DNA of 64,000 nucleotides from contig OZ024756.1 in the NCBI GenBank assembly GCA_964016885.1, positions 5,084,001 to 5,148,000 on the forward strand, given 5' to 3'. Source of the stretch: Eledone cirrhosa. Its lineage: Eukaryota. The first letter of the stretch is position 1; every line of letters starts with the position of its first letter. A program made the position numbers and the translations under genes. Below are positions 212-49,332 of this stretch, in pieces. The notes under the pieces are model-generated. The model had not been told where the DNA came from. It searched no databases and saw only the letters and a program-made list of their open reading frames with translations.

Positions 212-258
<47 letters not shown>

Positions 259-262
<4 letters not shown>

Positions 263-975
263 TATGTACACGTACATACATATATGTATACAGACGTACA
301 GTAGTATGTATATATATATACATGCAAACATATATATATGTACGTATAGATTCATCGAACATTTATTATAATGCTCGGTGTGTTTGTAAACAAACATCCC
401 GTATTAAGCCGTAGTGTCTAGCAACCATCGTTGCTCGTTTGTTCAACACTGACAAAGGAACGCTGTACTAGTTTCAAGCTTATTAGCTATCGTCAGCAAC
501 GTATACCTTCCTGCCAGATCGTTGAACGTATATACTTACCTTATGCATATTAACGGCTGAGTAGCCCAATTTGCATATCGAGTGGGTTAATCGGCCGGGT
601 GCACCGAAAACGATAAACGGAAAAAATGAAAGAAATTTAATTTCCCACTCTTAGTACGGCTGTTACTTAAATATAAGTATGTAGACGTACATACATATAT
701 GTATACAGACGTACAGTAGTGTTGAACAAACGAGCAACGATGGTTGCTAGACACTACGGCTTAATACGGGATGTTTGTTTACAAACACACCGAGCATTAT
801 AATAAATGTTCGGTGAATCCATACGTACATATATATATGTGTGCATGTATGTATATAAATATGCATACTACTGTACGTCTGTATACATATATGTATGTAC
901 GTGTACATACTTATATTTAAGTAACAGCCGTGCTAAGAGTGGGAAATGAAATTTCTTTCATTTTTTTCCGTTTAT
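259..975. mobile_element. Non-autonomous HHR-bearing PLE pseudo-LTR/retrozyme-like element: 415-bp unit (1.1 copies) plus inverted arm
   Basis: 259-305 recurs at 674-720 (415-bp period). 718-975 is the reverse complement of 450->259 continuing into 673->613. HHR at 460-502, (TA)n on both sides, homologous copy at 48850-49300. Confidence 0.75.
460..502 (-). ncRNA. Type I minimal hammerhead ribozyme
   Basis: Minus strand: ACGTTG CTGACGA TAGCT-AATA-AGCTT GAAA C-TA-G TA^ CAGCGT. Stem I has 6 pairs; stem III is palindromic (ACTAGT). Confidence 0.8.
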
Positions 976-1136
976 ATATATATATAAATATAATTAAAAG
1001 TTTAACAAGGTTCAATGAATTAATCAATGAATAAAGTTTCACAATAGATTATAAGCACTCTACAGTAGGGTTTTCTGGAGTTATTAATATTACTTCAAAA
1101 TATTAATAAATATAGACATTCATGTGATCAAATATA

Positions 1137-8760: not shown

Positions 8761-9802
8761 AGAATAGTCAATTTTCTGGATGTAACACTAAATCTCAACA
8801 CATGTCTTCACTATCCATTTCACAAACTAAATGAGAACTTGAATTATGTCACTTTTAGCTCTAATCACCCCAGATCTGTCAAATATACTATAGTGAACTC
8901 TGTTCGAGAACGAATTTCAAGAATTTCATCTAATAAAAATATTTTTGATGAAAAAGCGCAGTATTACAATGAAGCGTTAGCTAGAGCAGGATATAGGGAT
9001 AACATTAAATACATCGATAATAATAAGCAAACTAACTAAAATAATAACAATTTTAATTACGGTAACAACTTTAACAACTATAATAGAAAACATTACAATA
9101 ATTCCAAAAGCCGAAAAAGAAATAGAACTAGAAATATATTATGGTTTGCCCCCCCCCCCCCTTTCTCACTAAATATTAAAACCCATATTGCTAAACTATT
9201 CTTTAATGCTCTTGACAAACGCTTCCCTAGAACACATAAATATCACTCAATTTTTAATAGACACACTATAAAATTAACTTACTCGTCCACCAAAAATTTA
9301 GCACAAAATATTAACAGAATTAATAATAGGAATTTAAAACCTAACCAATAATAACCCAAACAATATTCAATTAAATAACTGTAACTGTAGAAATAAATCT
9401 AACTGTCCGTTAAATAACAACTGCTTAGCTAAAAATGTAGTGTACAATTGTAATGTTAAAACTAATTTAAATTCTTTCAACTATGTTGGTTCCACAGAAT
9501 TTAAACTTCGCTTCAATAATCATAAGAATTCTTTCATAGATCCAAACAAAAAATCCTCAACTTCGCTATCTAGCCTACTCTGGCACCTTAAACGAGATAA
9601 TGTTAAATATTCGATGATTTGGAATATTGTCTCAAAAGGTATTCCTTTTAATTCCTCATCAGAGAGTTGTGATCCTTGTATAGAAGAAATATTCTTTAAA
9701 TTAAAGTCCAAAAATTCCCTTAATTTAAGGAGCAATTTATTCAGTTGCTGCAGACATAGATTGAACTCAACGTTTAAATATAAATATAAATTTAAAATGT
9801 AG
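8743..9802 (+). pseudogene. 5'-truncated, disrupted PLE polyprotein (RT thumb plus GIY-YIG endonuclease)
   Basis: VNFLDVTL...SNHP...RISRISSN...YYNEAL; RNILWF; CNCRNKSNCPLNNNCL; VYNCNV..YVGST.FKLRFNNHKNSF; CDPCIEE; CRH. Colinear with the 36740 ORF, with stops and frameshifts. Confidence 0.9.
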
Positions 9803-11221
9803 TATAATTAATTAAGAAACTTAGTTAATATATGAAACCTGACGATAAATCATTAGATTCCTTCATCTTTTTCTTTTTTCTTTTTAAACTTTCTTCCTAA
9901 ATATAAACAAGGATATAATAAACTACTCTAAAATGTATATGCTCCCAATGTATTAAATAAAATTTACGTAAGATAAATTTCTATACTAAATATAAGGGCA
10001 TCCGTAGAATCACTGGGTCTTCTAAATCTTTGAAATTATTCTTATTTTTTTATTTGTTTTTTGACTCTGATAGCTTCTAATAATTTTCATATGTCTACCC
10101 TTGCAATATCTTGTTTGAGATATAGGTAGGATAGATTTCTATAATAAATATATAAAACATATTATTTTAACTTGAGATACTCTATAGTGTGTTAAAGATA
10201 TTTAATGCTTTGATATTTCTGTATTAATATATTGATATTTGATTATCTCTATACAAAGGCCATTTGTGTGTATTAACATGCATATAAAAGGTTTATGGAG
10301 TTTATTTATGTGTTCGTATATATGTCTGTATATATGCATAACGATGCTGGAAAACTCACGTAGATATTTATTTATACATATGTATGTGTATGTATGGTTG
10401 TGTGTGTATATGTTGATGTATGTTGCAGATATGCATAATATTAAATACATGAACGGTAATCATATATATGAGGACATGAATATTAATCGTATTTTTTATA
10501 TATATATACTGTGAAATTTTTATAACACAAGAAATGTATAGAAGTGATCAAGTGAAATCATTCGTATGTCTATATTATTGAATGGAGTAGACATAATTTT
10601 CTCTCTTTTTTTCTGGACGTACATATGCGTGTATATATATATACATATGTGTATCCGTATTTTTATAAATAGGGTATTTTTTGAAGGTTTTAACTCAGAT
10701 TTTGGTATATTGACCTCAAGGTTTTAAACCAAACATATGGTCATTATTGAACAATGTTATTTTCTCATATTATATATCTATGTCTCATTCATGAATATTG
10801 ATATTTACATTTTTATTATTCATTTCATATGAATTGTTAATTCAACTTAATCTATATAGTACTTCCTCTCTCTATATAGTACTTCCTCTCTCTTGAGTTT
10901 CTCTATCTGTATGATGAATTATTATCTCTCTGTTGCTTTCTTTTGTCTTTCTTATTTCTTTCTTTCTTATTCATTTCCTCCTATCTATTTATATATATCT
11001 TTCTTTTCTGCATACATTCCTTTTCTCTCTCTCCTTCTTTTTTTTCTCTCTCTCCTTCTCTCTCTCCGTTTTTTCTTTCTCTCCGTCTTTTTCTAACTGT
11101 GCTTAACACTATAACTAATAAAATAATTATAAACATCTCACTATCCAGACAGCTTCCCAAAATAGTGGTCGCATCTAATAGGGTACGTCAAAATTATTTA
11201 TAAAACTGTTTATATATTGTA

Positions 11222-11282
11222 TTTTGTCTGATGAAGGCATACCATATTTTAATTTGGTATCCCTGAAATATGTATAATGAAA
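11222..11282 (+). ncRNA. Type I minimal hammerhead ribozyme
   Basis: TTTTGT CTGATGA AGGcATACCA-loop-TGGTATcCCT GAAA T-ATGT-A TA^ ATGAAA. Confidence 0.8.
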
Positions 11283-11412
11283 TAAATATGGTTTTATAAA
11301 TATAGTTTCCATTTATTTAATATCGTATATCTACTCCAAAAACTTGTCGAGTGCTTTATATCAGTTATAAAATATTTACTTGTTGTATCCCAACAATTTT
11401 AAATAGAACTTT

Positions 11413-12222: not shown

Positions 12223-12251
12223 TTTTATTTATATATATATATATATATATA

Positions 12252-12386
12252 TAACGGAGGAAATGTGGTAAGGAACCAGGTGGACCATAACGCACCAAAG
12301 TACTCAATACTTAGGGTAGTAGAGTGGGTAATAGGAACGAGTAGGACCCCGACGGCTTGAGCTCAGCCGTCGGGGTCCTACTCGTT

Positions 12387-12390
<4 letters not shown>
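12252..12390 (-). mobile_element. Short fold-back element, 'GGACCCCGACGG' family
   Basis: Tail on the left; palindrome TAGGAACGAGTAGGACCCCGACGGCT-tgagctc-AGCCGTCGGGGTCCTACTCGTTCCTA; (TA)n flanks. Confidence 0.75.
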
Positions 12391-12434
<44 letters not shown>

Positions 12435-12798: not shown

Positions 12799-12985
12799 GG
12801 AATAGCAGTATCGGTAGAGGGTCGGACGCCATGCTTTGAATCATAGGGTTACTTCCCTTTATGATCTGAGTTCAAATCCCGCCAAGGTTAACTTTGCCTT
12901 TCATCCTTACAGGGTTGATAAAATAAAGTACCAGTAATAAAGTGGGATCATTGCTGGCCTTGTGCCAAAAGTAGAAACAATTATT
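12799..12985 (+). mobile_element. SINE family A (tRNA-derived head, Nin/Deu-like core)
   Basis: A-box-like TAGCAGTATCGG, B-box GAGTTCAAATCC, core GCCTTTCATCCTTACAGGGTTGATAAAATAAAGTACC. Confidence 0.8.
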
Positions 12986-13019
12986 TTGAAAGCAATGGAG
13001 GGAAACATTGACAACTTCT

Positions 13020-16235: not shown

Positions 16236-16419
16236 AATAATTGTTTCTACTTTTGGCACAAGGCCAGCAATAACTCATTTTATTACTGGTACTTTATTTT
16301 ATCGACCCTGTAAGGATGAAGGGCAAAGTTAACCTCGGCGGGATTTGAACTCAGAATGGCAAGGGCCGTAACTCTATACGTCAAAGCATGGCGTCCGACC
16401 CTCTACCAATACTGTCAAT
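16236..16419 (-). mobile_element. SINE family A
   Basis: Near full-length reverse-complement copy. A diverged relative follows at about 16420-16610. Confidence 0.8.
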
Positions 16420-17815
16420 AATGAGTTCTAAATTTGACGCAATGCCAGAAATCTGTAAAGTGAGCAGAGTTCATTAACTCGACCCAAGTTAATTACTGGT
16501 ACTTTATTTTATCGACCCTAGAATGATGACAAGCAAAGCTAACCTTGGCAGAATTTGAATTCAGAATAACTGTCAAAATGCATTTTGTTCGACGCTCTAA
16601 CAATTCAGAAAATCCGCAGACCTTAAGGTATTTTAGTAATAAACTGCAGGTGTATCTTTTCCTGAATAACCAGTGTTTAACTCGGGATTTCTTGGTGAAT
16701 GGGAGTTGGTTCAACGCCGGTTTATTGCAGATGTCTTTCCTCACAGGTGATAGAGTTATTATTATCATTCACAATTTATCAGTTCTATTCTGGTGCAACA
16801 GGTCACAGAAGTGAATTAAACCGCTTGTTTGTTAGACTCAACCATTAAGGGAAAACAATCCTGACTGGATCAACGTAATGCCAGTATCAGAATAGGTACT
16901 AGCAGTCCCTCTTTTATATGACCAGTCCTTCCACATTCTAGACGTACTACATGGTAGAGTTCATAAAAATAGATGCGTCATGGTTTTTATTACCGATTTA
17001 CTTTATTAAAACCCCACATGTTCTGCTGTTGGCGGACTTGAGAGTCATCTGAACCAAGAATCAAATTTAGTTTTTCTGGGAGTTCAACTCTATTTCACGA
17101 CACTTGTATTTATTGATTCTTTTCCTACATGCAAACCAATTATTGTTATGGAAATGTGCAGTCGACTGATTTGAACTTAGCACCCTATGGCACTACGGCC
17201 AATTTTAAAAGGATTTTACCTAGAAACGTATGATGATATAACTGTGTTTAATTTAAAGTCCCTTCTTTCTCGAGCATCTTCGCCATCTTTATGAATAAGG
17301 ATTTCTTATATATACACTGTCATAGCTTTATAGGTGAGGAAGAAATATGGTTGTCGTTTACGACTTTCCCCAAATTATTTGCAACATACTTCATGCCACA
17401 CCAAGACACCCCAGCCACCAATCTCATCAATTTCGAAAAGCTAGCGAATATTAAGGGCACTAAAGACCAGCTCTTAACAACTAATAAAATATAAGAATAA
17501 ATAAATGGCTTTAACTTCGAAACCGGTTCAGGGAGTCAGGTCAGCTGAAACTTAAATCGATACAATTCATAAACAGTTGTCTCTGATGAGAAGGAGATGA
17601 GGAGAGTGAGGCATTCATGCCTTTCCAATCGCTGCAGCTCGGAGATAGTCTCTAACTAAATTCAACAGTTCTATATATCAGTTGAAGATGGGAAGATCGT
17701 AGTAAAGTGTCCACGCATTTCCTAATGGCTGAAACCCCATTAGTTAAGATTTATAACCGTATACCGCAATTTGCCCCTTGCTATTACATATCAACATTAT
17801 GTTATTTTGATTTAG

Positions 17816-18005
17816 GGGTCGGTGGATTGGGAGTATCGGTAGAGGGTCGGACACCATGCTTTGCAGCATAGTTACGGCCCTTGCTATTCTGAGTTCAAAT
17901 CCCGCCGAGGTTAACTTTGTCTTTCATTTTTACGAGGTCGAGAAAATAAAGTACCAGTAATACACTGGATAATTGTTGGCCTTGTGCCTAACGTAGAAAC
18001 AATTA
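17816..18005 (+). mobile_element. SINE family A
   Basis: Full-length copy with A/B boxes and core. Confidence 0.85.
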
Positions 18006-19479
18006 TGTTATTTTTGATTACCAACTGTAAGGAGTAATTGATACTTCCTCTAATCTGTTAAGGCTTACTAGCTCTATACGGACGTTTAATTTGATTCAAT
18101 GAATAAATAATAAATAACTGCTTTACATTTCTTTATTGTATCAGATAATTTATTATATTGTAGTATTGTTAACATATTACACAAAATGAACAATGAGAAT
18201 TATACTTAAACTCCGTGTTAGATACAAAGAACCAGATAATCCTTCAAATACAGAGAAACCACGCTCTCGTGAAATTCAAATATCCCAAACTCCTCGAGCC
18301 AACACGAGAATTAAAACTGTTTCCGATTCGGGGAAATGTTTACTTGAACTTAAGGATTTTTCTAATGATTTCCTCATTACATTTTCATTAAATTCTCTAC
18401 AACACCAGCATCTAATCAACTGCAGTGTATCTGTTGCATAATTTCATTAATTTTCTTTTGTTTCTATAGGAGTGTTTCATTATATTGGGACGGAACTTGC
18501 TATCGTGTTGCTAGAAGGCCATTTTATGCAATTAGTAAAGTGAAATGGACCATTGTGATGAGACCTAGATTCAGAATAGCCCTCTGATTCATTATCTCAG
18601 TTTTAGAGTCCACAGCTCTAAATGATAGGGGGGTTAGGGGGCTGGGCAGAGGAAGTATTGGCTTGAGGACGTTAATGTTGATAGTAGATGGTGGTGTTAT
18701 GTACTGTATTGTGTTGGTGTCGAGAAGGAGTGTCTAATATTAACGAGAAAGATGATTATTACATTCACTAAATTTTATGAAGCATCCATTGTGATGAGTG
18801 GTGATGACATGTCGGAGTATTTTGTGGATAGATTTTTAATAATAATATAGGCAAAGTCTAAAGAAAATTTAATTTCTATGAGCTGTGTAGTGATTACCAA
18901 CAAAATTATTATAAAATGCACCATAATAATCTAGTTATCATCCCCGTCAGATATTCAATGTTCACATCAATTAGTTTAGGCATTTAGTCTTGAAGAAATT
19001 GATGTCTTTGTGTGGATTGAATGTTGTTATTAGCAATTGTATAATGGAACTCCGTCATAATAGGTAAATAGCATTGGAATATGATGGTATAATACAAGAA
19101 ACGCGAGTTTCAGGAACTGAATAATGCAAATAATAATAAATAAAAAGAAATATGTTCTTGAGGAAACTAATACGAAAATCAGAATAGAAGAATAGCTGAA
19201 AGAAACACAGTTGAGGCTGAGATTAAGAAAAAAGGACCATAAATAGATATAATAATTGAATAAAGAAAAAATTAAAAAAAACTAAAACAATAAAGACGAC
19301 CTCAATTATGAATGTCAAAGAAATCTATTAAGAGGAGAAATATAGTTAGGGTGTTATTGAGGTTTAAAGATGGAATGGAATAAAAACGAATTAAAATGAA
19401 ATACAAAAAATAAATGAAGGAAGAGGGTTAAAAAGCAGTTATGACAATATAAGGCACAAGAATGATGTCTAAAATAGTG

Positions 19480-21690: not shown

Positions 21691-22286
21691 TGATCACATT
21701 ACTGGGAGAGAGAAGAAATCACGTTATTCCTTGTTGAATCATTAGAATTTCGTGTTTGAGAAATAATACAAGAAAATATACAACAGCAACAACAGCAACA
21801 ACAATTACAAACAATAAAATGATTATATAGCGTTGGACGAATAACTGTTGTGTACAAATAATATAAAGTAGGGAATGAGAAGGGTAACAAAGAATCCCTG
21901 GCATATTTGAAAGGGGAGAGCGTAAATAATTAATGAGTGCGGAATCATTTTAGAGAAATATGCTAGAAAGGAATGTGTGTTGGATCTCCGTCGATTTCGA
22001 CGACGAATGATCGATCCAGTTGTTTGATCAATGATATAGTTAAATCGTGAAGTTATCGTGTGAGTGGTTAATCTCATCAATGATTGTTGTTATAGACAAA
22101 GAAAATATAGCTGATATAGGAGAGGAGGGTGAGAGAGATGGAGGCGATGACAGTAGGGGTTCGGCTCTTCCGTGTACGGCCATGGTGTGCAGCGTCAGTT
22201 GTCCGTAGGGTGGTAGTGGTTTGTTCTTAGAGAAGGTTTTTAGAACATACATTCCTGTATGTATTATTATAATACCAGAAATGAAG

Positions 22287-22477
22287 GTTGGATTGGCAGT
22301 ATCGGTAGAGGGTCGGAAGCCATGCTTTGACGCATAGAGTTACGACCCTTGCCATTCTGAGTTCAAATCCCGCCCAGGTTAACTTTGCCTTTCATCGTTA
22401 CGGGGTCGACAAAATAAAGTACCAGTAATGCACTGGGTTAATTGCTGGCCTTGTGCCTGAAGTAGAAACAATTATTA
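22287..22477 (+). mobile_element. SINE family A
   Basis: Full-length copy with A/B boxes and core. Confidence 0.85.
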
Positions 22478-22560
22478 TACTAGAAATGGTCATTACTCGT
22501 GTACCGGTTGAAAGCAATTGTCTGTTCCTGTAGGTATGAGTGTGGGTAGACGGAAAAGTT

Positions 22561-24404: not shown

Positions 24405-24593
24405 AACGAGTAGGACCCCGACGGCTGAGCTCAAGCCGTTTCGACGGCTAATTCTGTCCAGAATTAGCCGTCGAAACGGCTTGAGCTCAGCTGTCGGGGT
24501 CCTACTCGTTCCTATTACCCACTCACTACCCTAAGTATTGAGTACTTTGGTCCGTTATGGTCCACCTCGTTCCTTACAACATTTCCTTCGTTA
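24405..24593 (+). mobile_element. Short fold-back element, 'GGACCCCGACGG' family (longest arms)
   Basis: About 52-bp inverted arms around a 2-nt apex (24457-24458). Right arm reads GCCGTC GAAA CGGCT-tgagctc-AGCTG TC GGGGTCC, then the tail. Confidence 0.8.
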
Positions 24594-26164
24594 TATATAT
24601 ATATATATATATATACATATATAACCTCTACATTAAACCTCGAAAGCTTTGTTATTTTCTCTCTCTCTCTACCTGCAACAGCAGTAGATCCCCTCTACCA
24701 CTACCATCACCACCACTACCACAATCAGCACTACCACCGTCACTACCACCACCACAGAATGTTACCATTAGTTAATCCTAACATATTTGTCGTGCGGCCA
24801 AACATGCGGAAAATGTTCATTTTCTGGTTTGTTCCTTATTGATTATCGATCTATCCAGGGTTATAGACATCTCCACTTCACCACAGCCAACAACTACTGT
24901 AATGATGCCAATTAAACATTGAACAACAACTTCCCATGAAGGAAGTTCTTTCTTTCTCTCTTTTCACTTCATAAATCCCTGTATTTCCTTCATTTTTCCT
25001 CATTCTTTTCCCCAAACTCACTCCTCCTAATTTCTTTCTTTCTTTCTTTTAATTTACTATCACTTCTCTCTTTCTATCTTTTCCTCCAGATTCTTTCCTC
25101 TAACTTTCTCTTTTTTTATTTTCTTATTCTTTCCTTCATTTTTATTTTCTTTATATTTCTGTATTATTTCATCACCATTCTCTCACTTTCTTTCTTACCA
25201 TCTCTTAGTCTTCTCTCTTACCATTTTCTTAGTCTTTCTCTCTTACCATCTCTTAGTCTTTCTCTCTTACCATCTCTTAGTCTTTCTCTCTTACCATCTC
25301 TTAGTCTTTCTCTCGCTCTCTCACTTTCTTCCTTTCTATCACTCACTCTTTCTCCCTTTCTCTCACTCTCTCTTTCTTCCTTTCTCTTGCTCCCTTCCTT
25401 TCTTTCTATTGCTGTCTTTTTCTTTCTCAATTTCTCCTGCTCTCTCACTTTCTCTCTTTCTCCCTTTCTCTCATTTTCTCCCTTTCTCTCATTTTCTCTC
25501 TTTCTCTCTCTTTCTTCCTTTCTCTTGCTACCTTTCTTTCTTTCTATTGCTGTCTCTTTCTTTCGCAATGTTTCTCGCTCTCTCTCTTTTGCTCTCTATA
25601 CCTTGCTCCCTCTTTCTTCTTTTCCTTGTTTCTTTCTCTCTCTCTCTCTCTCTCAATTTTACCTACTCTTTCCCACTTACAACCAATCGCACTCTCAGTA
25701 ACCCACATCCACATTATCCCAACAACTCATTCACACTTATACACACACACAAACACACACCGTTTTCTTTTTCATTCTCTTTCCTCAAAATCCCCTTTTC
25801 TGAAAATACGAATTCGTTTCTTATTATTCAGTAGTTTGTTGATACAGACAGAATCTTTAATAAAATTCAATAACCAGAATAACATTAACAATAAGATAAA
25901 ATAGAAAACAATCAGTTTTAGCCGGTGAAAGCAGGATTTATGTTGCATTGTCAAAGATTTACCCAACGATACTCAATACAACCAGCTGTATTCATTCTGT
26001 TGTTAAACAGCAATGATCAGCCTCTCTGTTGATGGATTACAGATTAAGGTGGGCTTTTTTCCCCGCCTTTATATCATGCAATCATTTTTTTTTTATTTGT
26101 TTCCTCACTTGTTCCATTATACGTAATTATTTGTATTTTATTCCGCTAAACCTTCTTTTCTCAA

Positions 26165-28337
<2,173 letters not shown>

Positions 28338-28756
28338 ATTTTTGTCTAGTTCTTTTCAAATGTAATCCTCTGCCATATTGTTTGCATATTCATTAAACTT
28401 CCCCCCTCCCTATACCACTCATCCTTTATTAGCATATTCTGAAGATTAATAAATAATCCTCGAATTTTATACAAAGAGTCAATAAGCCAACCGAAGACCG
28501 ATGGCAAAACAAAGAGATTTGTTTAAATTTGGTCAAAGTTAACTAACAAAATATTGTGATCATAATAATATTGATTTTTAATTCAGGCAAAAGGCTAGTA
28601 AATTTGCGAGAAGGGAACGTTGATTAAATCAGCCCCAGTATTCGACTGGTATTTTAATTTATATGAATACAATGTCAAGAGAAGGAACAAAGACGGCGAT
28701 GTTATCTTATCCAACACTCTTCCAATTTTGCTATTTTACCACCCTCGTGATTATAA

Positions 28757-28936
28757 TAATTGTTTCTACTTTTGGCACAAGGCCATCAATTACCCAGTAC
28801 ATTACTGGTACTTTATTTTATCGACCCCGTAAGGATGAAATGCAAAGTTAACCTCGGCGGGATTTGAACTCAGACCGTAAAGGGACGTAACAATGCTAGA
28901 AAGCAAGGCGTCCGACCCTCTACCGATACTGCCAAT
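28757..28936 (-). mobile_element. SINE family A
   Basis: Near full-length reverse-complement copy. Confidence 0.85.
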
Positions 28937-32316: not shown

Positions 32317-33321
<1,005 letters not shown>

Positions 33322-33856
33322 GTAGATAAATCTCTACCAAGAGTTTACGGTAGTGTCCAATCCGTATGAAGAACTCAATGTAGTCCGGATATCATGGAAA
33401 GAAGAGATGCAATGAAAATCACTTTCGGTGAAAGATAAACGGAATACAGAGTCAAGATAAAATATTAAAAGAATAATGAATAAAACAATGAAACAGTTCC
33501 TTATATTAAACAAAAAAAGTTCATTATTTAACGATCGTTTCTAGGATATATATGTGTTAGAATTGGCATGCATATTCAACAGATCTATGTACAAAATTAT
33601 ACAAAATTATACAAACTATCAAGATTAAATATACATACCAAACACACATATATGCCGGCATATATGTGTGTTTGGTATGTATATTTAATCTTGATAGTTT
33701 GTATAATTTTGTATAATTTTGTACATAGATCTGTTGAATATGCATGCCAATTCTAACACATATATATCCTAGAAACGATCGTTAAATAATGAACTTTTTT
33801 TGTTTAATATAAGGAACTGTTTCATTGTTTTATTCATTATTCTTTTAATATTTTAT
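33322..33856 (-). mobile_element. Severely truncated PLE insertion forming a perfect 400-bp spacerless palindrome plus a 135-bp tail
   Basis: 33457-33856 is a palindrome centred on GCC|GGC (33656/33657); the ORF track gives identical peptides on both strands. 33322-33656 is homologous to the reverse complement of 42580-42906. Confidence 0.9.
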
Positions 33857-33911
33857 ATATATATATTTATATTTATATATATTTATATATATATATATTT
33901 ATATATATATA

Positions 33912-33954
<43 letters not shown>

Positions 33955-34058
33955 TTATATATATATATATTTATATATATATATTTATATATATATATTT
34001 ATATATATATATTTATATATATATATTTATATATATATATTTATATATATATATTTAT

Positions 34059-34923
34059 ATAAAATATTAAACAAATAATGAATAAACAATTCCTTATATT
34101 AAACAAAAAAAGTTCATTATTTAACGATCGTTTCTAGGATATATATGTGTTAGAATTGGTATACATATTCAACAGATCTATGTACAAAATTATACAAAAT
34201 TATACAAATTATCAAGATTAAATATACATACCAAACACATATAAACGCCGTATTCAGAAATAATGAAGTATATTTATTGATAATAACAACAATTCAAAAT
34301 TTCAGGTCCGTTTGGGAACAAAAATTGACCAATGAAAACACAAAGGGTTAAATGCAGTTCGGTGTGTGTATATACATGTAAAACCCTTACACATATTTTA
34401 CAAAAATGTATGTATAAATTGTATACGCATACTAAAAAGATGGATGCAAATACAAAATTTTCAAGGTTAATGTCTCTGTGAGTTATTGACACTTATGAAG
34501 TTAAGTATATAAATATATTTTTTCATACTCACACATATCCGTACAATCACACATACACGCGCGTATATGCATAAATATACACATAACCACGAACATACAA
34601 ACACACACACACCCCCACTCACATTTATATATGTGGATATAAAATCATAAGCACATGGATATTAATTCACTCACATAAAACACTGGCATACACATTTTCA
34701 GATCAAGATACAGAAATTAGGTGGGAGGGGGGGGGGAGGGGTCAATATTCAACGGTCTGAACAGACTGCCTAATATAAATGTATCTATAAACTAAGAAAA
34801 ATAAAACAAATAAAACACAATAAATAAAACATTAAGGAAGAAAGAATAGAAAGAAAAACAGAAAAAAGAAAAAAGAAAAAAGAAATATATCAAGAAAATA
34901 AATATACACATATACACATACAT

Positions 34924-34968
<45 letters not shown>

Positions 34969-35180
34969 TATATATATATATATAAAAAAACACATACATA
35001 TATATACACACATAGACACTCACACATCCATACATAAATATACACACATATATAAATACATACATACATATACACACATCCACACTAAGAACATACATAC
35101 ACACACATATAAAAACATATACATATACACACATACATACATATACACATATACATACAAATACACATACACATATATAT

Positions 35181-35219
<39 letters not shown>

Positions 35220-35537
35220 TATACATACATATGCATATACACGTACATATACATACACATATACATATAATCACACATACTATACAGACACAGATATATA
35301 TAACCACACACATACATGCAAATATACAACACTTACATACTAATATACATACAGATATACACATACATAGCTATATATACACACAAATATATACAGATTT
35401 ACATATATACATACAGACAAATACTTACGCATCTATATATCGGTATATCCATACTAACACCACTACACTATCACACAACATAGAAATACAAAGAGAAAGG
35501 TATATACCTATACACAACATACATATACAAATAGAAA

Positions 35538-35585
<48 letters not shown>

Positions 35586-35614
35586 GACATACATATACAC
35601 TTATATATATATAT

Positions 35615-35662
<48 letters not shown>

Positions 35663-35917
35663 TACACATACAAATACACATAACATATACATACAGATAT
35701 ATACACATACATACATGTACACACACACACACAGAAATATATACGCATACATACATACACACATACATATAAAGTCATACACACACATATATCTACACGA
35801 ACATACACATACACATATATAAAGATATATATACACACACACACACACACGCAACACATACACACATACACATATATATAAAAAATAAATAATAAAGATA
35901 TATACATATATATATAT

Positions 35918-35972
<55 letters not shown>

Positions 35973-36360
35973 CACCCAAATATATATACACATACATACA
36001 TACATAGACATACATGTACATACATATACGTACACCGATATACATATATATATATACATACACACATAGATATATACATACATACACACACAACTTACAT
36101 ACACACATATATATACATGTATATTCATACATAGAATTCGAAATATAATCATACATACATATGCACTTACTTATACTCATATATACTAATACATACGCAT
36201 CCATTTATGCGTATATACATAAAAAACACTACAACCTTACCTAACTCAGACATACAAATAAAATATTAATAAAAAGGCATATGTATATATATACACACAC
36301 GCATTAATAGAGATATATATATATACACACATACACACATACATATATATATATACATAC

Positions 36361-36404
<44 letters not shown>

Positions 36405-36412
36405 ACTCATAC

Positions 36413-36445
<33 letters not shown>

Positions 36446-36519
36446 CAAAGATACCTACACATTCATACCACCATAAATACACATACAAACACCCACATAT
36501 ACATATATATACACACACG

Positions 36520-36559
<40 letters not shown>

Positions 36560-36674
36560 AAAAACAGACATGCACATATATATATATTTTTCTACACTTA
36601 TATATAGACATATTATATACATATACATAACTTCACTTATACACACATACACATAAGTTATATTATAATAATAA
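34059..36674 (-). repeat. Inverted repeat, left arm (about 2.6 kb)
   Basis: Reverse complement of 40146-42771; mirrored ORF-track peptides (e.g. 34274-34492 vs 42338-42556) are identical. Confidence 0.95.
34113..34267 (-). ncRNA. Hammerhead ribozyme, left-arm copy with core substitution (CTGAATA)
   Basis: Mirror of 42563-42717 but with G8 changed to T, so predicted inactive. Confidence 0.65.
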
Positions 36675-38242
36675 CACTTATTGAATTTCAGAATGAATAC
36701 TGGACCAGAAACACATACAGTAATCTTTTTGATATTACTATGGGTTCAAGCGATTCCGCCCAAATTACTGATCTTGTGGGCCTCTTTCTCCTTTTCAACA
36801 TAAATGCCTCTTTTCCCCACCTCAAAGGTGGTTTATATCGTGATGACTGTCTTCTTCTTTCTAACAACCTTAGCCTTTCAGAAATTGAAAAAAACAAAAA
36901 ACATATTAGAACTTTCCTTAAAGACTATTATAATCTTAATATTACTTTTGAAAAAACAAGTAAGGTAGTAAACTTCCTAGATATAACTTTAGATTTAGCT
37001 ACGGGTATCTACCAACCTTACCATAAACCTAACCAAAACTTACATTACATACACTCACAATCTAATCACCCTAAATCTATCCTTAAAAACCTTGCATATA
37101 ATATATCACTTAGAATTTCTAACCTTTCTTCTAACCAAGATGTATTTGATAAAAATGCGACCTTCTATAACGAAGCTCTAGATAGAAGTGGCCACAAAAA
37201 TAGATTAGAGTATATACCTTCTACTAAAAATACTGAAAGCATACAACATAATATTACCAACAAACACCAAATGAAAAGTACACACCTAAATGCCACCCAC
37301 ACTATACCCCAAAATACCAAATCTTCTAATATAAAGTATAATAACTCTCAAAAAACTACTCATCATACAACTCTAATAAATATTAATAATAAAACTCCTA
37401 ATAAAAAGGATAAAACACCTAAATCTACAAATATAACTAAAAATAGTTGTGGTGAGATCATTAACATTAATCCTCCTAGTAAAAATCACGATACAACCTA
37501 TAAAAATAATAAAAATAATAAACAACATAGAAACCGTAATAGACGGGTTACTTGGTATAATGCTCCTTTTAATTTACAAGTTAAGGATAATATTGCTAAA
37601 AAATTTTTTTATATCCTTGAGAAAAACTTCCCGCCAAACCACAAATACCATCAAATCTTAAATAGGTCTACAGTTAAATTCTCATACTCTACAACAAATA
37701 ACATAAAACAAAATATAAGTGCATATAATGCATATAAATGTAAGAAAACCATAACTATACCACCAGTACATCAAATTAACCATAATATCTCCTCAAATAC
37801 AGAATTAACGAAAGGATGTAACTGTAGAAACAAAGCAAACTGCCCATTAAAAGGGAATTGTCTTGTTAACAACATAGTCTATAAATGTAATGTTAAAACT
37901 AAAGATTCTATTTGCTCATATATAGGAGCTACCTCTAACAATTTTAAGACAAGGTTTAATACCCACAAGCATAGTTTTAAAAATGCTGCACTGGCTAATA
38001 CAACATCTCTAGCTGAAAAAATCAATAGTTATAAAAATAAGAATATAAAATATGATTTGACCTGGAGTGTGCTCAAAAGAGCCACCCCTTATCAAAATAA
38101 TAGAAATGAATGTAGATTATGTTCCCAAGAACTATTTGAAATAATGAAGTCTAAGGATATCTTATTAAATAAACGACAGGAATTAATTATATCGTGTAAT
38201 CATAAACTAAAAAAAACATTTAAATATTATAAACCTAATTAA
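36674..38242 (+). CDS. PLE polyprotein, 5'-truncated: reverse transcriptase (from motif B), linker and GIY-YIG endonuclease; Naiad-like
   Basis: The frame is open upstream of the ATG at 36740 (TLIEFQNEYWTRNTYSNLFDITMGS). Motifs: GLYRDD, VNFLDITL, PYHKPN, SNHP, CNCR..CPLKGNCL, IVY..SYIG, FKTRFNTHKHSF, CRLC..E, LLNKRQE..C.H. No internal stop. The ATG is an internal Met of RT motif B. Confidence 0.93.
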   Translation, partial: TLIEFQNEYWTRNTYSNLFDITMGSSDSAQITDLVGLFLLFNINASFPHLKGGLYRDDCLLLSNNLSLSEIEKNKKHIRTFLKDYYNLNITFEKTSKVVNFLDITLDLATGIYQPYHKPNQNLHYIHSQSNHPKSILKNLAYNISLRISNLSSNQDVFDKNATFYNEALDRSGHKNRLEYIPSTKNTESIQHNITNKHQMKSTHLNATHTIPQNTKSSNIKYNNSQKTTHHTTLININNKTPNKKDKTPKSTNITKNSCGEIININPPSKNHDTTYKNNKNNKQHRNRNRRVTWYNAPFNLQVKDNIAKKFFYILEKNFPPNHKYHQILNRSTVKFSYSTTNNIKQNISAYNAYKCKKTITIPPVHQINHNISSNTELTKGCNCRNKANCPLKGNCLVNNIVYKCNVKTKDSICSYIGATSNNFKTRFNTHKHSFKNAALANTTSLAEKINSYKNKNIKYDLTWSVLKRATPYQNNRNECRLCSQELFEIMKSKDILLNKRQELIISCNHKLKKTFKYYKPN

Positions 38243-39920
38243 CAACATTATTTTAGAAATTAATTTAATTTAAATGTTAGTTAACCTATATATTTAATTT
38301 AATTAAAATTTTATTACAGATCAGAATATAAAATATTATGTAATCATAAATTGTGAAAAACCTTTAAATATTACTAATATATACTTAGTAATTTAATTTA
38401 TAGATTAATTTTAATTTATTTAAACCTTTTATTATTTTATTATAATTCTTTTACAGATAAAATATAACAAAATAATATCGTGTATCCAATGACAGAAAAA
38501 TAATTTTTAGTATTATTGACCTAATTAATATACATTTTAGAAATATATTTATAATTTGGTTTTAGTTTTAATCAACCTAAAAATTTAATTTTAATTTGCT
38601 TAATATTCGTATCCTTATACAGACGAATTGCAGAATGTCATGTAATCATAGAATGCGATGTGTTTTGGATATATACCTAGTTAATGTATTCTATGCAATT
38701 TTTTGAAAAAGATATGTATATGTATATGTGTATGTGTATGTGTGTGTGTATGTATATGTATATATATGTATATATATATATATATATATTTGTGTGTATA
38801 TGTGTGTATATGTGTATGTGTATGTATATGTATATGTATGCGTATTAATTTTGATTTCTATTTGCATATAATTATATTATGCTATTGATGAAATACAATA
38901 TCTGCTTTATGTATTGTATACCTAATTAACATATACTATAGAAATAAATATATAATTTTTAATTTAGTTAACCTATAATTTATATTCTACTACCGATGTA
39001 CTACTTTATTTTATTTGTTTTTTCCCTATTACTAATTTCATTTCCTAATATTGATACCATAACGTTATTAACTTTAATTTAGTTATACTGTAATTAATAC
39101 TCTACTACTATTTAACTTCAAAATTCTGCTTCAAATATTATAAACCTAACTAATTTACACCTTAGAAATCAATATGTTAACTATCTTTGGTTTAGTTAAC
39201 ATATAGTTAATGGTATACTTGTTTATTTTGAGATGCATAGATTTTGCCTTAGTTTTTATTTGTTGTATTTCATAACACTGAAAAATATGTAAAATAAACA
39301 TACATTGGATAAAGATACGGAAAATTTTCTATGTTTCTTGAAACATATATTTACTTTGATCCCCTTCTCCAAACCCCCCCTTTCCCCCATACTATTATCA
39401 TCTGTATTTGTAAGCGTCTATGTATGAATATATATGTAGGTAGGTGTCTATATAGGTTTGGCTATTTATATCTAAATATAAAAATACATATACGTGCATG
39501 CAAATATGAATGTAAGATTGTGTGTGTATATATGAGTGTGTGTATGTATGTATATGTGTGTATATATGCATCTATATATGTACGTGTATGTGAATGTGTG
39601 TACGTATATGTGTATGTATGTGTATATGTGTGTATATATATATGTTATGTGTATATATAAGATTATGTATATGTATATATATATATATATGTATATGTAT
39701 ATGCGTGTGTATGTATGTGTGTGTATGTGTGTTGTATATATATGTATGTCTCTCTATTTATATGTATATCTCCGTATCTATGTGATATATGTGTGTGTAT
39801 GTGCATGTATGCACATATATGTGCTTATGTGTATATATATGTGTATGTATGTATATGTGTGTGTGTGCATGCACACAGAGATATATATATATGTGAGTGT
39901 GTATATGTGTCTGTGTATAT

Positions 39921-39975
<55 letters not shown>

Positions 39976-40035
39976 TGTCTATGTGTGAATATATATCTAT
40001 ATTCATATGTGTGTATATGTGTATGTATGTGTTTG

Positions 40036-40079
<44 letters not shown>

Positions 40080-40103
40080 GGTATGTATATATGTATATAT
40101 ATG

Positions 40104-40143
<40 letters not shown>

Positions 40144-40145
40144 TT

Positions 40146-40260
40146 TTATTATTATAATATAACTTATGTGTATGTGTGTATAAGTGAAGTTATGTATATG
40201 TATATAATATGTCTATATATAAGTGTAGAAAAATATATATATATGTGCATGTCTGTTTTT

Positions 40261-40300
<40 letters not shown>

Positions 40301-40411
40301 CGTGTGTGTATATATATGTATATGTGGGTGTTTGTATGTGTATTTATGGTGGTATGAATGTGTAGGTATCTTTGTATATATATATATATATATATATGTA
40401 TATGTATGAGT

Positions 40412-40451
<40 letters not shown>

Positions 40452-40839
40452 GTATGTATATATATATATGTATGTGTGTATGTGTGTATATATATATATC
40501 TCTATTAATGCGTGTGTGTATATATATACATATGCCTTTTTATTAATATTTTATTTGTATGTCTGAGTTAGGTAAGGTTGTAGTGTTTTTTATGTATATA
40601 CGCATAAATGGATGCGTATGTATTAGTATATATGAGTATAAGTAAGTGCATATGTATGTATGATTATATTTCGAATTCTATGTATGAATATACATGTATA
40701 TATATGTGTGTATGTAAGTTGTGTGTGTATGTATGTATATATCTATGTGTGTATGTATATATATATATGTATATCGGTGTACGTATATGTATGTACATGT
40801 ATGTCTATGTATGTATGTATGTGTATATATATTTGGGTG

Positions 40840-40896
<57 letters not shown>

Positions 40897-41151
40897 ATAT
40901 ATATATATGTATATATCTTTATTATTTATTTTTTATATATATGTGTATGTGTGTATGTGTTGCGTGTGTGTGTGTGTGTGTATATATATCTTTATATATG
41001 TGTATGTGTATGTTCGTGTAGATATATGTGTGTGTATGACTTTATATGTATGTGTGTATGTATGTATGCGTATATATTTCTGTGTGTGTGTGTGTACATG
41101 TATGTATGTGTATATATCTGTATGTATATGTTATGTGTATTTGTATGTGTA

Positions 41152-41205
<54 letters not shown>

Positions 41206-41234
41206 ATATATATATATATGTGTATATGTATGTC

Positions 41235-41276
<42 letters not shown>

Positions 41277-41594
41277 TTTCTATTTGTATATGTATGTTGT
41301 GTATAGGTATATACCTTTCTCTTTGTATTTCTATGTTGTGTGATAGTGTAGTGGTGTTAGTATGGATATACCGATATATAGATGCGTAAGTATTTGTCTG
41401 TATGTATATATGTAAATCTGTATATATTTGTGTGTATATATAGCTATGTATGTGTATATCTGTATGTATATTAGTATGTAAGTGTTGTATATTTGCATGT
41501 ATGTGTGTGGTTATATATATCTGTGTCTGTATAGTATGTGTGATTATATGTATATGTGTATGTATATGTACGTGTATATGCATATGTATGTATA

Positions 41595-41633
<39 letters not shown>

Positions 41634-41845
41634 ATATATATGTGTATGTGTATTTGTATGTATATGTGTATATGTATGTATGTGTGTATATGTATATGTT
41701 TTTATATGTGTGTGTATGTATGTTCTTAGTGTGGATGTGTGTATATGTATGTATGTATTTATATATGTGTGTATATTTATGTATGGATGTGTGAGTGTCT
41801 ATGTGTGTATATATATGTATGTGTTTTTTTATATATATATATATA

Positions 41846-41894
<49 letters not shown>

Positions 41895-42771
41895 ATGTAT
41901 GTGTATATGTGTATATTTATTTTCTTGATATATTTCTTTTTTCTTTTTTCTTTTTTCTTTTTTCTGTTTTTCTTTCTATTCTTTCTTCCTTAATGTTTTA
42001 TTTATTGTGTTTTATTTGTTTTATTTTTCTTAGTTTATAGATACATTTATATTAGGCAGTCTGTTCAGACCGTTGAATACTGACCCCTCCCCCCCCCCCC
42101 CCCTCCCACCTAATTTCTGTATCTTGATCTGAAAATGTGTATGCCAGTGTTTTATGTGAGTGAATTAATATCCATGTGCTTATGATTTTATATCCACATA
42201 TATAAATGTGAGTGGGGGTGTGTGTGTGTTTGTATGTTCGTGGTTATGTGTATATTTATGCATATACGCGCGTGTATGTGTGATTGTACGGATATGTGTG
42301 AGTATGAAAAAATATATTTATATACTTAACTTCATAAGTGTCAATAACTCACAGAGACATTAACCTTGAAAATTTTGTATTTGCATCCATCTTTTTAGTA
42401 TGCGTATACAATTTATACATACATTTTTGTAAAATATGTGTAAGGGTTTTACATGTATATACACACACCGAACTGCATTTAACCCTTTGTGTTTTCATTG
42501 GTCAATTTTTGTTCCCAAACGGACCTGAAATTTTGAATTGTTGTTATTATCAATAAATATACTTCATTATTTCTGAAGACGGCGTTTATATGTGTTTGGT
42601 ATGTATATTTAATCTTGATAATTTGTATAATTTTGTATAATTTTGTACATAGATCTGTTGAATATGTATACCAATTCTAACACATATATATCCTAGAAAC
42701 GATCGTTAAATAATGAACTTTTTTTGTTTAATATAAGGAATTGTTTATTCATTATTTGTTTAATATTTTAT
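40146..42771 (+). repeat. Inverted repeat, right arm (3' pseudo-LTR region)
   Basis: See left arm. Confidence 0.95.
42563..42717 (+). ncRNA. Type I hammerhead ribozyme with very long stem II
   Basis: TTCATTATTT CTGAAGA [about 116-nt stem II: TATATGTGTT/AACACATATA, TGGTATGTATATTTAA/TTGAATATGTATACCA] GAAA C-GATC-G TT^ AAATAATGAA. Perfect 10-bp stem I. Confidence 0.85.
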
Positions 42772-42906
42772 CTTGACTCTGTATACCGTTTATCTTTCAC
42801 CGAAAGTGGTTTTTCATTACATCTCTTCTTTCCATGATATCCGGAATACATTGAGTTCTCCATACGGATTGGACACTACCGTAAACTCTTGGTAGATTTA
42901 TCTACA

Positions 42907-44058
<1,152 letters not shown>

Positions 44059-45365: not shown

Positions 45366-45397
45366 CAAATAATAATAATAATGAGTGTGATTATAAT

Positions 45398-45759
45398 AAT
45401 AATTGTTTCTACTATTGGCACAAGGCCAGCAATTACGCAGTACATTACCGGTACTTTATTTTATCGACCACGTAAGGATGAAAGGCAAAGTTAACCTCGG
45501 CGGGATTTGATCTAAGAATGGCCAGAGTGTAATTATAGTTTAATGTAAGGAATGTTAATAATGATAATAATAATTGTTTCTACTTTAGGCACAAGGCCAG
45601 CAGTTACCCAGTGCATTACTGGTACTTTATTTTATCGACCCCGTAAGGATGAAAGGCAAAGTCAACCTCGGCGGGATTTGAACTCAGATCGTAAAGGGAC
45701 GTAACTATGCTGGAAAGCATGGCGTCCAACCCTCTACCGATACTGCCAATCCACCGCCA
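45398..45759 (-). mobile_element. Two adjacent SINE family A copies (45398-45523 truncated; 45570-45759 full length)
   Basis: Reverse-complement matches to family A, each with an (ATT)n tail. Confidence 0.85.
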
Positions 45760-45786
45760 TGTGGTGATATGATAATAATAATGTCC

Positions 45787-46292: not shown

Positions 46293-47022
46293 TTAAATAT
46301 TTAACATGTTAGCTATATGTAAAGTTGAGATTATATGATTATGTTGGGTCAAATGTTCTATTGGCGAAGGATTTGCCCTTCGATGTTGACAGCTAATAGT
46401 TACCTCGTTTCTATCGTTTATAGGTTGTGGTCGTGATAGAGTTAAGTAATAGGCCTCGGTAACACAGAGATCACAACAGTTTCTTCGTCCATTGAACGCT
46501 TGGGCTCTAGCCAAGATATCCCATGTTAGTGAGTGTTCAGTGTTGGTTAATTTAAGGTTTTTAATGAGCCTAGCTAGAGATGTTGAACATCTATTGCTAG
46601 GGTCACGGAAGGAAAAAGAGTGCGCATTATAGCGTACCTTAAAAGGGTTAGAGGTAGAGCCAATATAGGAGCTAGTGTGTGATGCTGTTTTAACTGTGCA
46701 CTTATATACTATATTGGGTGTAAGGCATTGTCCGTTTAGTGGGCATGCATTAGGATGACGGCAGTTGCAATTACTGCTGCGGTTAGTAAGGGTAGGGTTG
46801 TTTAAACTATGTGGCTGGTGTGTGCTAGAAGGATTAGATGGGGGAGGTATGCTACTAGAGTAAGTATTTGTGTAGAGACGTAGTGCATTTGAGGGGGTAG
46901 TGGTACCGCGGTGTGGGAGTTATACTGTCCTAGTTTATGATGGTTACTGAATGCGATGTGGCTAGCTAGGTTAGGTGTTGTGGATAATGAGATTTTAATG
47001 TTGTTTTTATTAAAGAGTTTGT
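46293..47022 (-). pseudogene. 5'-truncated PLE: linker plus GIY-YIG endonuclease
   Basis: YKLFNKNNIKISLSTTPNL...; CNCRHPNACPLNGQCLTPNSIYKCTVKT..SYIGSTSNPFKVRYNAHSFSF...TW..LARA...CDLCVTE...SCQHR. Confidence 0.9.
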
Positions 47023-47291: not shown

Positions 47292-47354
<63 letters not shown>

Positions 47355-47399
47355 CGTAAAATAAGAAAATTATAAAATTAACTTACTTACTAAAAAATC

Positions 47400-47483
47400 A
47401 CTTCCAACTAATTAGTTTCTGGAATGGAGTAAATATATTTTCCGAAGAAACATATAGAAAAATCATTCCGTCATCAGGAAAGT
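47400..47483 (-). ncRNA. Type I hammerhead ribozyme (copy 1)
   Basis: Minus strand: ACTTTC CTGATGA cGGAATG...CATTCCa GAAA CT-AATT-AG TT^ GGAAGT. Palindromic CTAATTAG. Confidence 0.85.
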
Positions 47484-47925
47484 CTTTTTCCGTGTAAGTC
47501 TCCAGGCATAGCGAGGACTCTGGAAACTTATTAAAAAAATAATTCAGTGGAAAGGAAATAGCGAAGCGTGGACTGGATTCCTAGCCATTGAGAAAATCAC
47601 TGCCTCTACGTCTGTGGCAAATTCAAAAAGAATCAATCACGTGACATCGAGGTCAATCAGTGGAAAGCGAGTGGTTAATAAGACAGCGGCCAGCCTACTA
47701 CCATAGTAGCAGTCATGGCCAAATATTGCTCGACAAATGAATTGGAGATAATTATAAGGAATTTATATCTAGTAACATTTATATACACACAGATGCATAT
47801 CAATGCTAGCAAATATATAGGTTTTGTCTTATTAACATTGTGGTTCAATGCATGGGGTTGCAGAACAATAATATGAGAGACGTAAAATAAGAAAATTATA
47901 AAATTAACTTACTTACTAAAAAATC

Positions 47926-48009
47926 ACTTCCAACTAATTAGTTTCTGGAATGGAGTAAATATATTTTCCGAAGAAACATATAGAAAAATCATTCCGTCAT
48001 CAGGAAAGT
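47926..48009 (-). ncRNA. Type I hammerhead ribozyme (copy 2)
   Basis: Same sequence as copy 1, 526 bp away. Confidence 0.85.
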
Positions 48010-48579
48010 CTTTTTCCGTGTAAGTCTCCAGGCATAGCGAGGACTCTGGAAACTTATTAAAAAAATAATTCAGTGGAAAGGAAATAGCGAAGCGTGGACT
48101 GGATTCCTAGCCATTGAGAAAATCACTGCCTCTACGTCTGTGGCAAATTCAAAAAGAATCAATCACGTGACATCGAGGTCAATCAGTGGAAAGCGAGTGG
48201 TATATATGGTAATGAATGAGTTAATATTATACACATTAATACACATTAATAATTCCTCACATCACTTTCTTTATATTCTCTTCTAATGCTTTTTTGATAT
48301 AGTAATACGTCATTTTATTTTTTCAAAGTCTAGCTTAATATAAGTTAAAAATTCATATTGCTAAATATGTTCTTTGTTTATTCAGTATAACTAAACTTTT
48401 TATTCTAAAAATTTCGTCTTTTCCATCTCCAAAATTCCACTCATAAAGAATTGATAATCAGTATGTCAAAATATAGTACAAAATATTTCTCTGAGGTGCT
48501 GTCAAGTGAGATAAAACCTTGAACAACATGTTTGCGTAGAGAACTTCTTAACCACACACATATATATATATAATAATGA

Positions 48580-48815: not shown

Positions 48816-48849
48816 CGCCTGACCGATTTAACTCACTCGATATGCAAAT

Positions 48850-49117
48850 TAGGCTGCTCAGCCGTTAATTTTCATAAGGAAAGTATATACTTTCGAACGT
48901 TCAACTATCTGGCAGATGGGTATACGGTGCTGATGATAGCTAACAAGCTTGAAACTAGTACATCGTTCCTGTGTCAGTGTTGAACAAAAAGGTGACGTGG
49001 TTGCCTTAACACCGTGCGGCATAAATTCAGGCTGTTCAGTTTGTTTACAAACGAACAAAGCGGGCGCTATAATAAGCGTCCGCTAAACTGATGCGTACAT
49101 ATATGTATGTGTACCTG

Positions 49118-49187
<70 letters not shown>

Positions 49188-49300
49188 TGCTACTGTACGT
49201 CTGTATACATATATGTATGTACGTATACATACATACTTACATTTAAGTAAGTGCCGTACTAAGAGTGAGAAATGAAATTTCGTTTTCATTTTATTACAAC
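48850..49300 (+). mobile_element. Second, diverged copy of the 259-975 HHR element family
   Basis: Colinear with the reverse complement of 570->259, then with 870-970. Confidence 0.8.
48924..48966 (+). ncRNA. Type I minimal hammerhead ribozyme
   Basis: ACGGTG CTGATGA TAGCT-AACA-AGCTT GAAA C-TA-G TA^ CATCGT. Confidence 0.85.
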
Positions 49301-49301
49301 T

Positions 49302-49332
<31 letters not shown>

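Follow-up and report, generated by a model that had tools for sequence, protein, structure and literature searches.

A 415-nt non-coding unit with a predicted hammerhead ribozyme is arranged like a Penelope-like element insertion in Eledone cirrhosa

Results

Structure of the repeat unit and its arms

The window analysed here is a 64,000-nucleotide (64-kb) stretch of the Eledone cirrhosa assembly GCA_964016885.1 (contig OZ024756.1, positions 5,084,001 to 5,148,000 of the forward strand) and is rich in microsatellites. Close to its start, between two TA-rich tracts, lies an insertion made of two opposed arms of a single 415-nt unit (Table 1). Read in the ribozyme sense, the left arm begins with a 47-nt truncated copy (720→674), continues through the full unit (673→259) and passes into (TA)n. 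The right arm runs in the opposite direction, from the equivalent of 450 past 259 and through a further 58-61 bases (673→613), before it also passes into (TA)n.

Table 1. Features of the 415-nt unit, its second copy and other elements in the window
Feature	Coordinates	Strand	Description
(TA)n target tract	213..258	.	left flank of the insertion
Full 415-nt non-coding unit	259..673	-	ribozyme sense is the minus strand; 3' end tail-free
Predicted type I hammerhead	460..502	-	helix I 502-497/465-460; core CUGACGA 496-490; U•U-closed helix II 489-476; GAAA 475-472; palindromic helix III ACUAGU 472-467
Unit start ("tail" stretch)	613..673	-	58-61 nt; found 3' on the right arm and the distant copy
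5'-truncated preceding copy	674..720	-	47-nt pseudo-LTR-like repeat, equals 259-305
Inverted 5'-truncated copy	718..913	+	equals 450→259; head-to-head with left arm; no ribozyme
Right-arm tail	914..975	+	equals 673→613; ends TTAT into (TA)n
TA-rich target tract	976..992	.	right flank
PLE coding remnants	36608-38242; 9040-9802; 46293-46919
Diverged second copy, ~0.97 unit	~48818..49304	+	plus strand is the ribozyme sense; ~600→259 plus tail 673→613
SINE-like copies	2261-2373; 12799-12998; 16236-16424; 17820-18006; 22262-22479; 28748-28936; 45390-45780; 55908-56110

A first-pass annotation of this DNA had proposed that 259-305 recurs at 674-720, so that the first arm is a 1.1-mer. The two stretches agree at 46 of 47 positions with a period of 415, and the left arm measures 1.11 units with the cleavage site intact inside it. 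The same annotation had read 718-975 as a copy of 450→259 that continues seamlessly into 673→613, and the reverse complement of this arm indeed forms one unbroken alignment to 613-673 plus 259-450 at ~96% identity, with 187 matches, 5 substitutions and 4 gap columns over 450-259 and 59 matches, 2 substitutions and 1 gap column over 673-613. The arms overlap by 3 nt at the inversion point (718-720). At the other end of the left arm, TAT is common to the arm and the (TA)n tract, and the exact boundary is ambiguous within 256-259.

The unit has a GC content of 36.9%, and the window as a whole 29.7%. TTAT occurs three times per unit; all three arms (the left arm, the right arm and the second copy described below) end at such a site, and all three 3' ends pass into TA tracts. 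In agreement with the annotation, which had seen no ORF, the longest stop-free stretch in six frames of the doubled unit is 59 codons, and an ORF with RT and GIY-YIG endonuclease is absent from these frames, none of which is open for 60 codons or more.

A search by nhmmer with 347-673 as query returned only two loci in the 64-kb window. The second carries a hammerhead with C3 at 48930, contains an internal (TA)n expansion and runs at its 3' end into (TA)n. It aligns to 234-594 at 75% identity over 383 columns and to 623-719 at 88% identity over 103 columns, and is colinear over the 259/673 junction. The annotation had placed a junction-crossing copy at 48850-49300; the crossing is confirmed, and the copy proved slightly longer than those limits. 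The second copy and the right arm, which are 75-88% alike, have an identical terminal 3' base.

Predicted hammerhead ribozyme

Cleavage of the predicted type I hammerhead would fall after GUA, between 466 and 465, with C3 at 496 on the minus strand. Predicted helix I has 6 bp and extends with bulges to ~441-525, helix II comprises 4 bp beginning with U•U, and helix III, whose ACUAGU is a palindrome, comprises only two pairs. One ribozyme per unit had been claimed and was recovered in both copies, with C3 at 496 (-) and at 48930 (+). The inverted arm, whose start lies 15 nt beyond the cleavage site, is ribozyme-free, and a two-ribozyme array occurs at neither of the two loci in the window. A structured scan found 12 hammerhead-like sites in the window, compared with 1 in 30 shuffles (0.03 per block-shuffled window). 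Rfam returned no match at gathering score anywhere in the window; at E≤10 over 200-1500 it returned 74 matches, all below gathering score and none a hammerhead, which were set aside as mostly hairpin and microsatellite noise.

In a comparison of two sequences only, the copies in the window, 6 of 56 predicted pairs are changed on both sides, 2 on one side, and none is broken. At the helix I pair 499:463 the two window copies carry U•G and G•U, single contigs of public runs (see below) carry G•U and U-A, and the totals in run X5 are consistent with A-U. Among the 40 variants listed (with 7 further rows), the core is represented by N7 alone. The compensatory pair changes are offered as support for selection acting on the predicted RNA structure.

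Ribozyme activity may be weak, given that helix II opens with U•U and that helix III has only two pairs. A U10.1•U11.1 pair occurs in natural hammerheads (PMC3088659), and natural precedent for a palindromic helix III with dimeric folding is described in PMC3088659 and PMC6155905; in vitro, one of nine predicted Xenopus dimers cleaved (bioRxiv 10.64898/2026.07.22.740005). Judged by the helix III palindrome alone, the ribozyme of the 415-nt unit would act as a dimer. Folding of two ribozyme copies by RNAcofold did not give the textbook double-hammerhead fold, and helix III has a pair probability of 0 in the monomer fold. As a circle, the unit has a predicted fold of -122.1 kcal/mol, against -89.7±6.4 in 100 shuffles (z -5.1), with ensemble pair probabilities of 0.45-0.94 for helix I and 0.90-1.0 for helix II. 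The predicted circle is strongly self-paired, and helices I and II are free to form in it.

PLE remnants and other repeats in the window

The window also holds coding remnants of Penelope-like elements (PLEs). The remnant at 36608-38242 has 879 relatives at E≤0.001 and contains RT motifs, a YIG motif and a linker of the form CNC-x5-CP, the naming of these motifs following in part PMC8557442. Pfam named none of the four PLE-like ORF pieces in the window, and relatives of these pieces gave weak matches to RVT_1 (E 0.004) and GIY-YIG (E 0.012) in two of the four; the PLE call on the coding remnants therefore rests on the motifs. By the description of the linker in PMC8557442, the ORF at 36608-38242 would be a PLE of Neptune type. 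Two of the coding remnants are followed by hammerheads with a near or full palindromic helix III (11228 and 42573). Within the 64-kb window, nhmmer with 347-673 found no sequence common to the 415-nt unit and the PLE remnants.

The ORF at 36608-38242 is 5'-truncated, encodes RT-GIY-YIG with an Asn/Lys/Thr-rich insert, and sits in a large PLE insertion (32317-43924). This insertion has a microsatellite-rich 3' region of ~4.3 kb with the ribozyme at 42573, and is flanked by inverted copies (34059-36674 and 40146-42771, 98%; 32317-33657 and 42580-43924).

The window contains 13 hammerhead-like sites from several unrelated families, 12 of them found by the scan and the thirteenth, at 42573, having a helix II span of 116 nt. 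They lie at 496, 1192/1290, 11228, 11816, 42573, 44989, 47477/48003, 48930, 58947 and 60590/60715, and helix III is palindromic in most. A separate non-coding unit at 47345-48201 (-) has a period of 526 and forms a 1.63-mer whose repeats (47345-47675 and 47871-48201) are 100% identical over 331 nt. Each repeat has a type I hammerhead with palindromic helix III (C3 at 47477 and 48003), the element ends in (TA)n, and its longest stop-free stretch is 77 codons. Its two tandem ribozymes bring it closer to the definition of a retrozyme than the 415-nt unit, and it looks very young. At 993-1395 and 60405-60815 lie short inverted-repeat insertions, both arms of which contain a hammerhead; only one side has additional sequence, and they seem to share the tail-plus-inversion arrangement of 259-975. 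The stretch 1129-1200 and the ribozyme at 11220-11290, which stands behind a PLE ORF remnant, are 74-76% alike.

Several further repeats were noted. ORF remnants at 54776-56498 (-), interrupted by a tandem repeat (54778-55186), received no name from Pfam; we take them to resemble a Tc1/mariner-type transposase. A SINE-like family of ~190 bp is present in at least 8 copies that are 84-95% alike (Table 1). Short palindromic insertions lie in or beside (TA)n at 1406-1617, 12226-12391, 24405-24623, 54049-54288, 53486-53708 and 61032-61279, several of them interrelated, and the structured scan found no complete hammerhead in these six.

Related sequences in public contigs

The stretch 259-720, with 259-346 masked, was compared with contigs of four of 24 listed public runs. 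Aligned contigs numbered 10,955 in X1, 135 in X5, 2 in X4 and 8 in X6; X4 and X6 are of low depth and most X1 contigs are short. The thousands of variant contigs suggest a high copy number, and the summed X1 depth, 0.49-2.3 million over 355-720, is taken neither as a copy number nor as a ranking of parts. All unmasked bins are covered by contigs in X1, X5 and X6, and the share of X1 records that continue into unlike sequence is 0. Among 27 pieces listed (with 11,135 further), three bridge 613/612 with at least 31 letters on each side (X1 record 8, X4 record 10 and X6 record 19). Tail variants resembling the distant copy also continue into 612, with loose ends at 614 in X5 and 616 in X6. Two of the seven joints listed join opposite strands (529/620 and 392/675, one X1 contig each), as expected from repeated inverted insertions with variable 5' ends; the locus's own inversion joint, 720/450, is not among the seven from X1, X4, X5 and X6. 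The evidence for the 259/673 junction comes from the three arms of the window, and true dimers are invisible to this comparison owing to the mask and the short contigs. On the evidence of the contigs, the unit is most likely a separate family, closed at 415 nt and ORF-free.

Of the 24 listed runs, 20 contain words of the unit; 16 coded organism names and a metagenome are represented among them. A wide host range or horizontal transfer is not claimed from this, as carry-over of a high-copy repeat could explain the 2 contigs in X4 and the 8 in X6. No RNA dataset is among the listed runs with unit words; X5 is a smaller run whose kind is unrecorded, and contigs give no view of RNA ends or circles. 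A 24-mer pattern for the ribozyme had no match in metagenome contigs or in viral contigs. A second, 20-mer pattern matched seven metagenome loci, and was rejected as chance since all seven match over just 21 nt.

Discussion

An insertion with the layout of a Penelope-like element

Insertions of PLEs are described in PMC8557442 as partial tandems (with a pseudo-LTR, or pLTR) whose 5' end adjoins a 5'-truncated copy in inverted orientation, with a tail that is usually one-sided and a bias to (TA)n, and head-to-head inversions with a tail are likewise reported for PLEs in PMC3846280. At 259-975, a full unit (673→259) stands behind the 5'-truncated copy 720→674, a head-to-head inverted 5'-truncated copy adjoins the left arm, and the target is (TA)n or AT-rich. 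The stretch 673→613 is present on the right arm and the distant copy and missing from the end of the left arm; at 58-61 nt it is longer than the usual 30-40 of PLE tails. Since this layout matches published PLE insertions, the junction-crossing part of the inverted arm is the PLE tail. Target-site duplication is unreadable because the target is a microsatellite.

We consider it probable, with good though not full confidence, that the 415-nt non-coding hammerhead unit, present in copies with PLE layout, is mobilised in trans by the RT/GIY-YIG protein of an autonomous PLE and works in the manner of a retrozyme. The process would start from a transcript of more than one unit with the ribozyme uncut, for which the left arm, spanning 1.11 units across the cleavage site, is direct evidence; its simplest source would be a tandem copy, partial or full, that is transcribed by read-through. 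A PLE protein would bind this transcript and nick a (TA)n tract, both loci ending in TA tracts. Priming of cDNA may then take place internally at either of two TTAT sites that lie 58-61 nt apart, at 673 and 613. Two cDNAs, or one folding back, would be joined head-to-head, in an order of events that is presumed, through the 3-nt overlap seen at the locus, and one arm would keep the sequence between the two start sites as its tail. Cleavage by the ribozyme would occur mainly in dimers formed through the palindromic helix III and, where two units stand in tandem, would release monomers that may circularise. In the Poseidon PLE of the anole, as described in PMC11167929, reverse transcription begins at two internal points of an unprocessed tandem transcript, and the tail corresponds to the sequence separating them; the AT-rich target is cut and extended on both strands, and RNA that has not been cleaved serves as the main substrate.

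Template and alternative explanations

The first-pass annotation had deduced that the template was a tandem multimer or a circle. The part of this that stands is that the template exceeded one unit: the left arm covers 1.11 units over an uncut cleavage site, and a self-cleaved linear monomer is therefore excluded. The read-through does not serve as evidence for a circle, as it requires a template of more than one unit with the ribozyme either uncut or re-joined, and a tandem precursor supplies this as well as a circle does. We infer a minimum template of 1.11 units plus a second RNA, of ~1.26 units for one cDNA folding back, or of ~2.3 units if a single RNA was primed twice. A scheme in which self-cleavage of tandem transcripts yields monomers, ligation closes these into a circular RNA of 415 nt and a PLE RT copies round it would differ from the preferred account in its template only, and appears possible but not likely. 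The intact cleavage site is crossed in both the left arm and the distant copy, every adjacency of the 415-nt cycle is present in at least two arms or contigs, the very stable predicted circular fold with helices I and II resembles those of metazoan retrozyme circles, and circles are the form in which mussel retrozymes of 350-390 bp accumulate (PMC7229834 for both likenesses). Such a circle is unnecessary, however, as a linear RNA of 1.1-1.3 units is enough; the longest arm is 1.11 units and the 3' ends fall at two sites rather than being permuted, ribozyme cleavage was dispensable for insertion in the sole reconstituted PLE (PMC11167929), and the window has no two-ribozyme array of the 415-nt family. 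The annotation had suggested a test for circularly permuted starts; 5' ends vary among the contigs, and the 3' ends of the window arms look preferred rather than freely permuted, two of three arms terminating on one base in what is a small sample. A fuller version of this scheme, in which a high-copy retrozyme circle is copied directly by a Penelope-type RT and the tail and pseudo-LTR are the footprint of internal priming on the circle, seems to us somewhat less probable again.

It is improbable, in our view, that a coding PLE merely left its 5'-truncated 3' ends here, each a pLTR with its tail, in partial tandem, and that the 415 period is a local accident. Several other hammerhead palindromes in the window do resemble stumps of this kind, among them 1087-1395, which matches the ribozyme behind the PLE ORF at 9338-9802 at 74-76%, and one X6 contig leaves the unit at position 464 and continues for 137 letters unlike it. 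The sole possible stack joint, 613/612, is nevertheless continuous in diverged copies from three runs, coverage of the unmasked unit is full in X1, X5 and X6, and almost no X1 sequence runs on into unlike sequence. The annotation had named copies that are only pLTR fragments of a coding PLE, with fixed ends, as the case against it; continuity at 613/612 in other copies and the varying 5' ends speak otherwise. An assembly or amplification artefact, namely a fold-back chimera, could be suspected of a long inverted repeat beside microsatellites whose locus-specific joint is absent from the listed contig joints. The arms nonetheless differ by 7 substitutions and by indels, one arm alone departing from the family at some of these positions (639, 684), the order of the tail in the right arm is impossible by simple fold-back, and an independent diverged copy has the identical 3' end, which leaves an artefact very hard to credit.

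Relation to known elements

The annotation had likened the unit to retrozymes, and the likeness is sustained by a non-coding unit of 36.9% GC that has a type I hammerhead and is strongly folded. Animal non-LTR retrozymes, as presented in PMC7229834 and 10.64898/2026.07.22.740005, likewise have a non-coding unit of a few hundred bases with GC below 45% and one type I hammerhead; they are strongly self-paired and of high copy, co-exist with PLEs as proposed mobilisers, and are common as solo monomers. They differ in that their definition requires circular RNA and tandem arrays carrying two or more ribozymes, whereas a 1.11-mer and a 0.97-mer are found here. The length of 415 nt is just over the 170-400 nt of PMC7229834 and inside the 51-972 of 10.64898/2026.07.22.740005, and a term search of the main texts of these two papers found no description of inverted or tailed insertions. 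Retrozymes of this kind have been argued to be non-autonomous PLE derivatives on the grounds of co-occurrence and pLTR homology (10.64898/2026.07.22.740005).

With Neptune/Poseidon-type PLEs the element has in common the pseudo-LTR tandem, the head-to-head inverted truncated copy, the one-sided tail and the (TA)n target, as well as a minimal type I hammerhead with palindromic helix III; it differs from the described elements in lacking an RT/GIY-YIG ORF, in its period of 415 nt and in its 58-61-nt tail. Chlamys PLEs such as MRC1 are also non-coding, with pLTRs and head-to-tail insertions made through a PLE helper, but are found in green algae (Chlamydomonas), are mostly hammerhead-free and have 3' sequence in common with the helper (PMC8557442). 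In octopus, a repeat annotation reports recently active PLE families, and ribozymes go unmentioned in its account of them (PMC13282606). On each feature testable here except helper homology, the 415-nt unit belongs to the non-autonomous PLE-type class; it would work like an animal retrozyme, a described kind, and is a candidate retrozyme. We found no account in the open-access literature of the 415-nt family or of inverted, tailed retrozyme insertions, and the inverted, tailed anatomy of a retrozyme-like insertion is a new point of modest weight.

Taken alone, the 415-nt element is a further ribozyme-bearing repeat family of a described class. If a circle were indeed copied by a Penelope-type RT, these insertions would be the missing physical link from retrozyme circles to the PLE machinery, and the density of hammerheads (about a dozen, from several unrelated families, in 64 kb) makes this genome suited to proving it. 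With its two candidate priming sites, the element is a compact substrate for the question of circular versus linear tandem templates in the PLE cycle. The earlier case for PLE mobilisation of animal retrozymes was built on co-occurrence and pLTR homology; here a non-coding unit of retrozyme size bears the PLE insertion signature of inversion, one-sided tail and TA target, which is direct structural support for mobilisation by PLEs.
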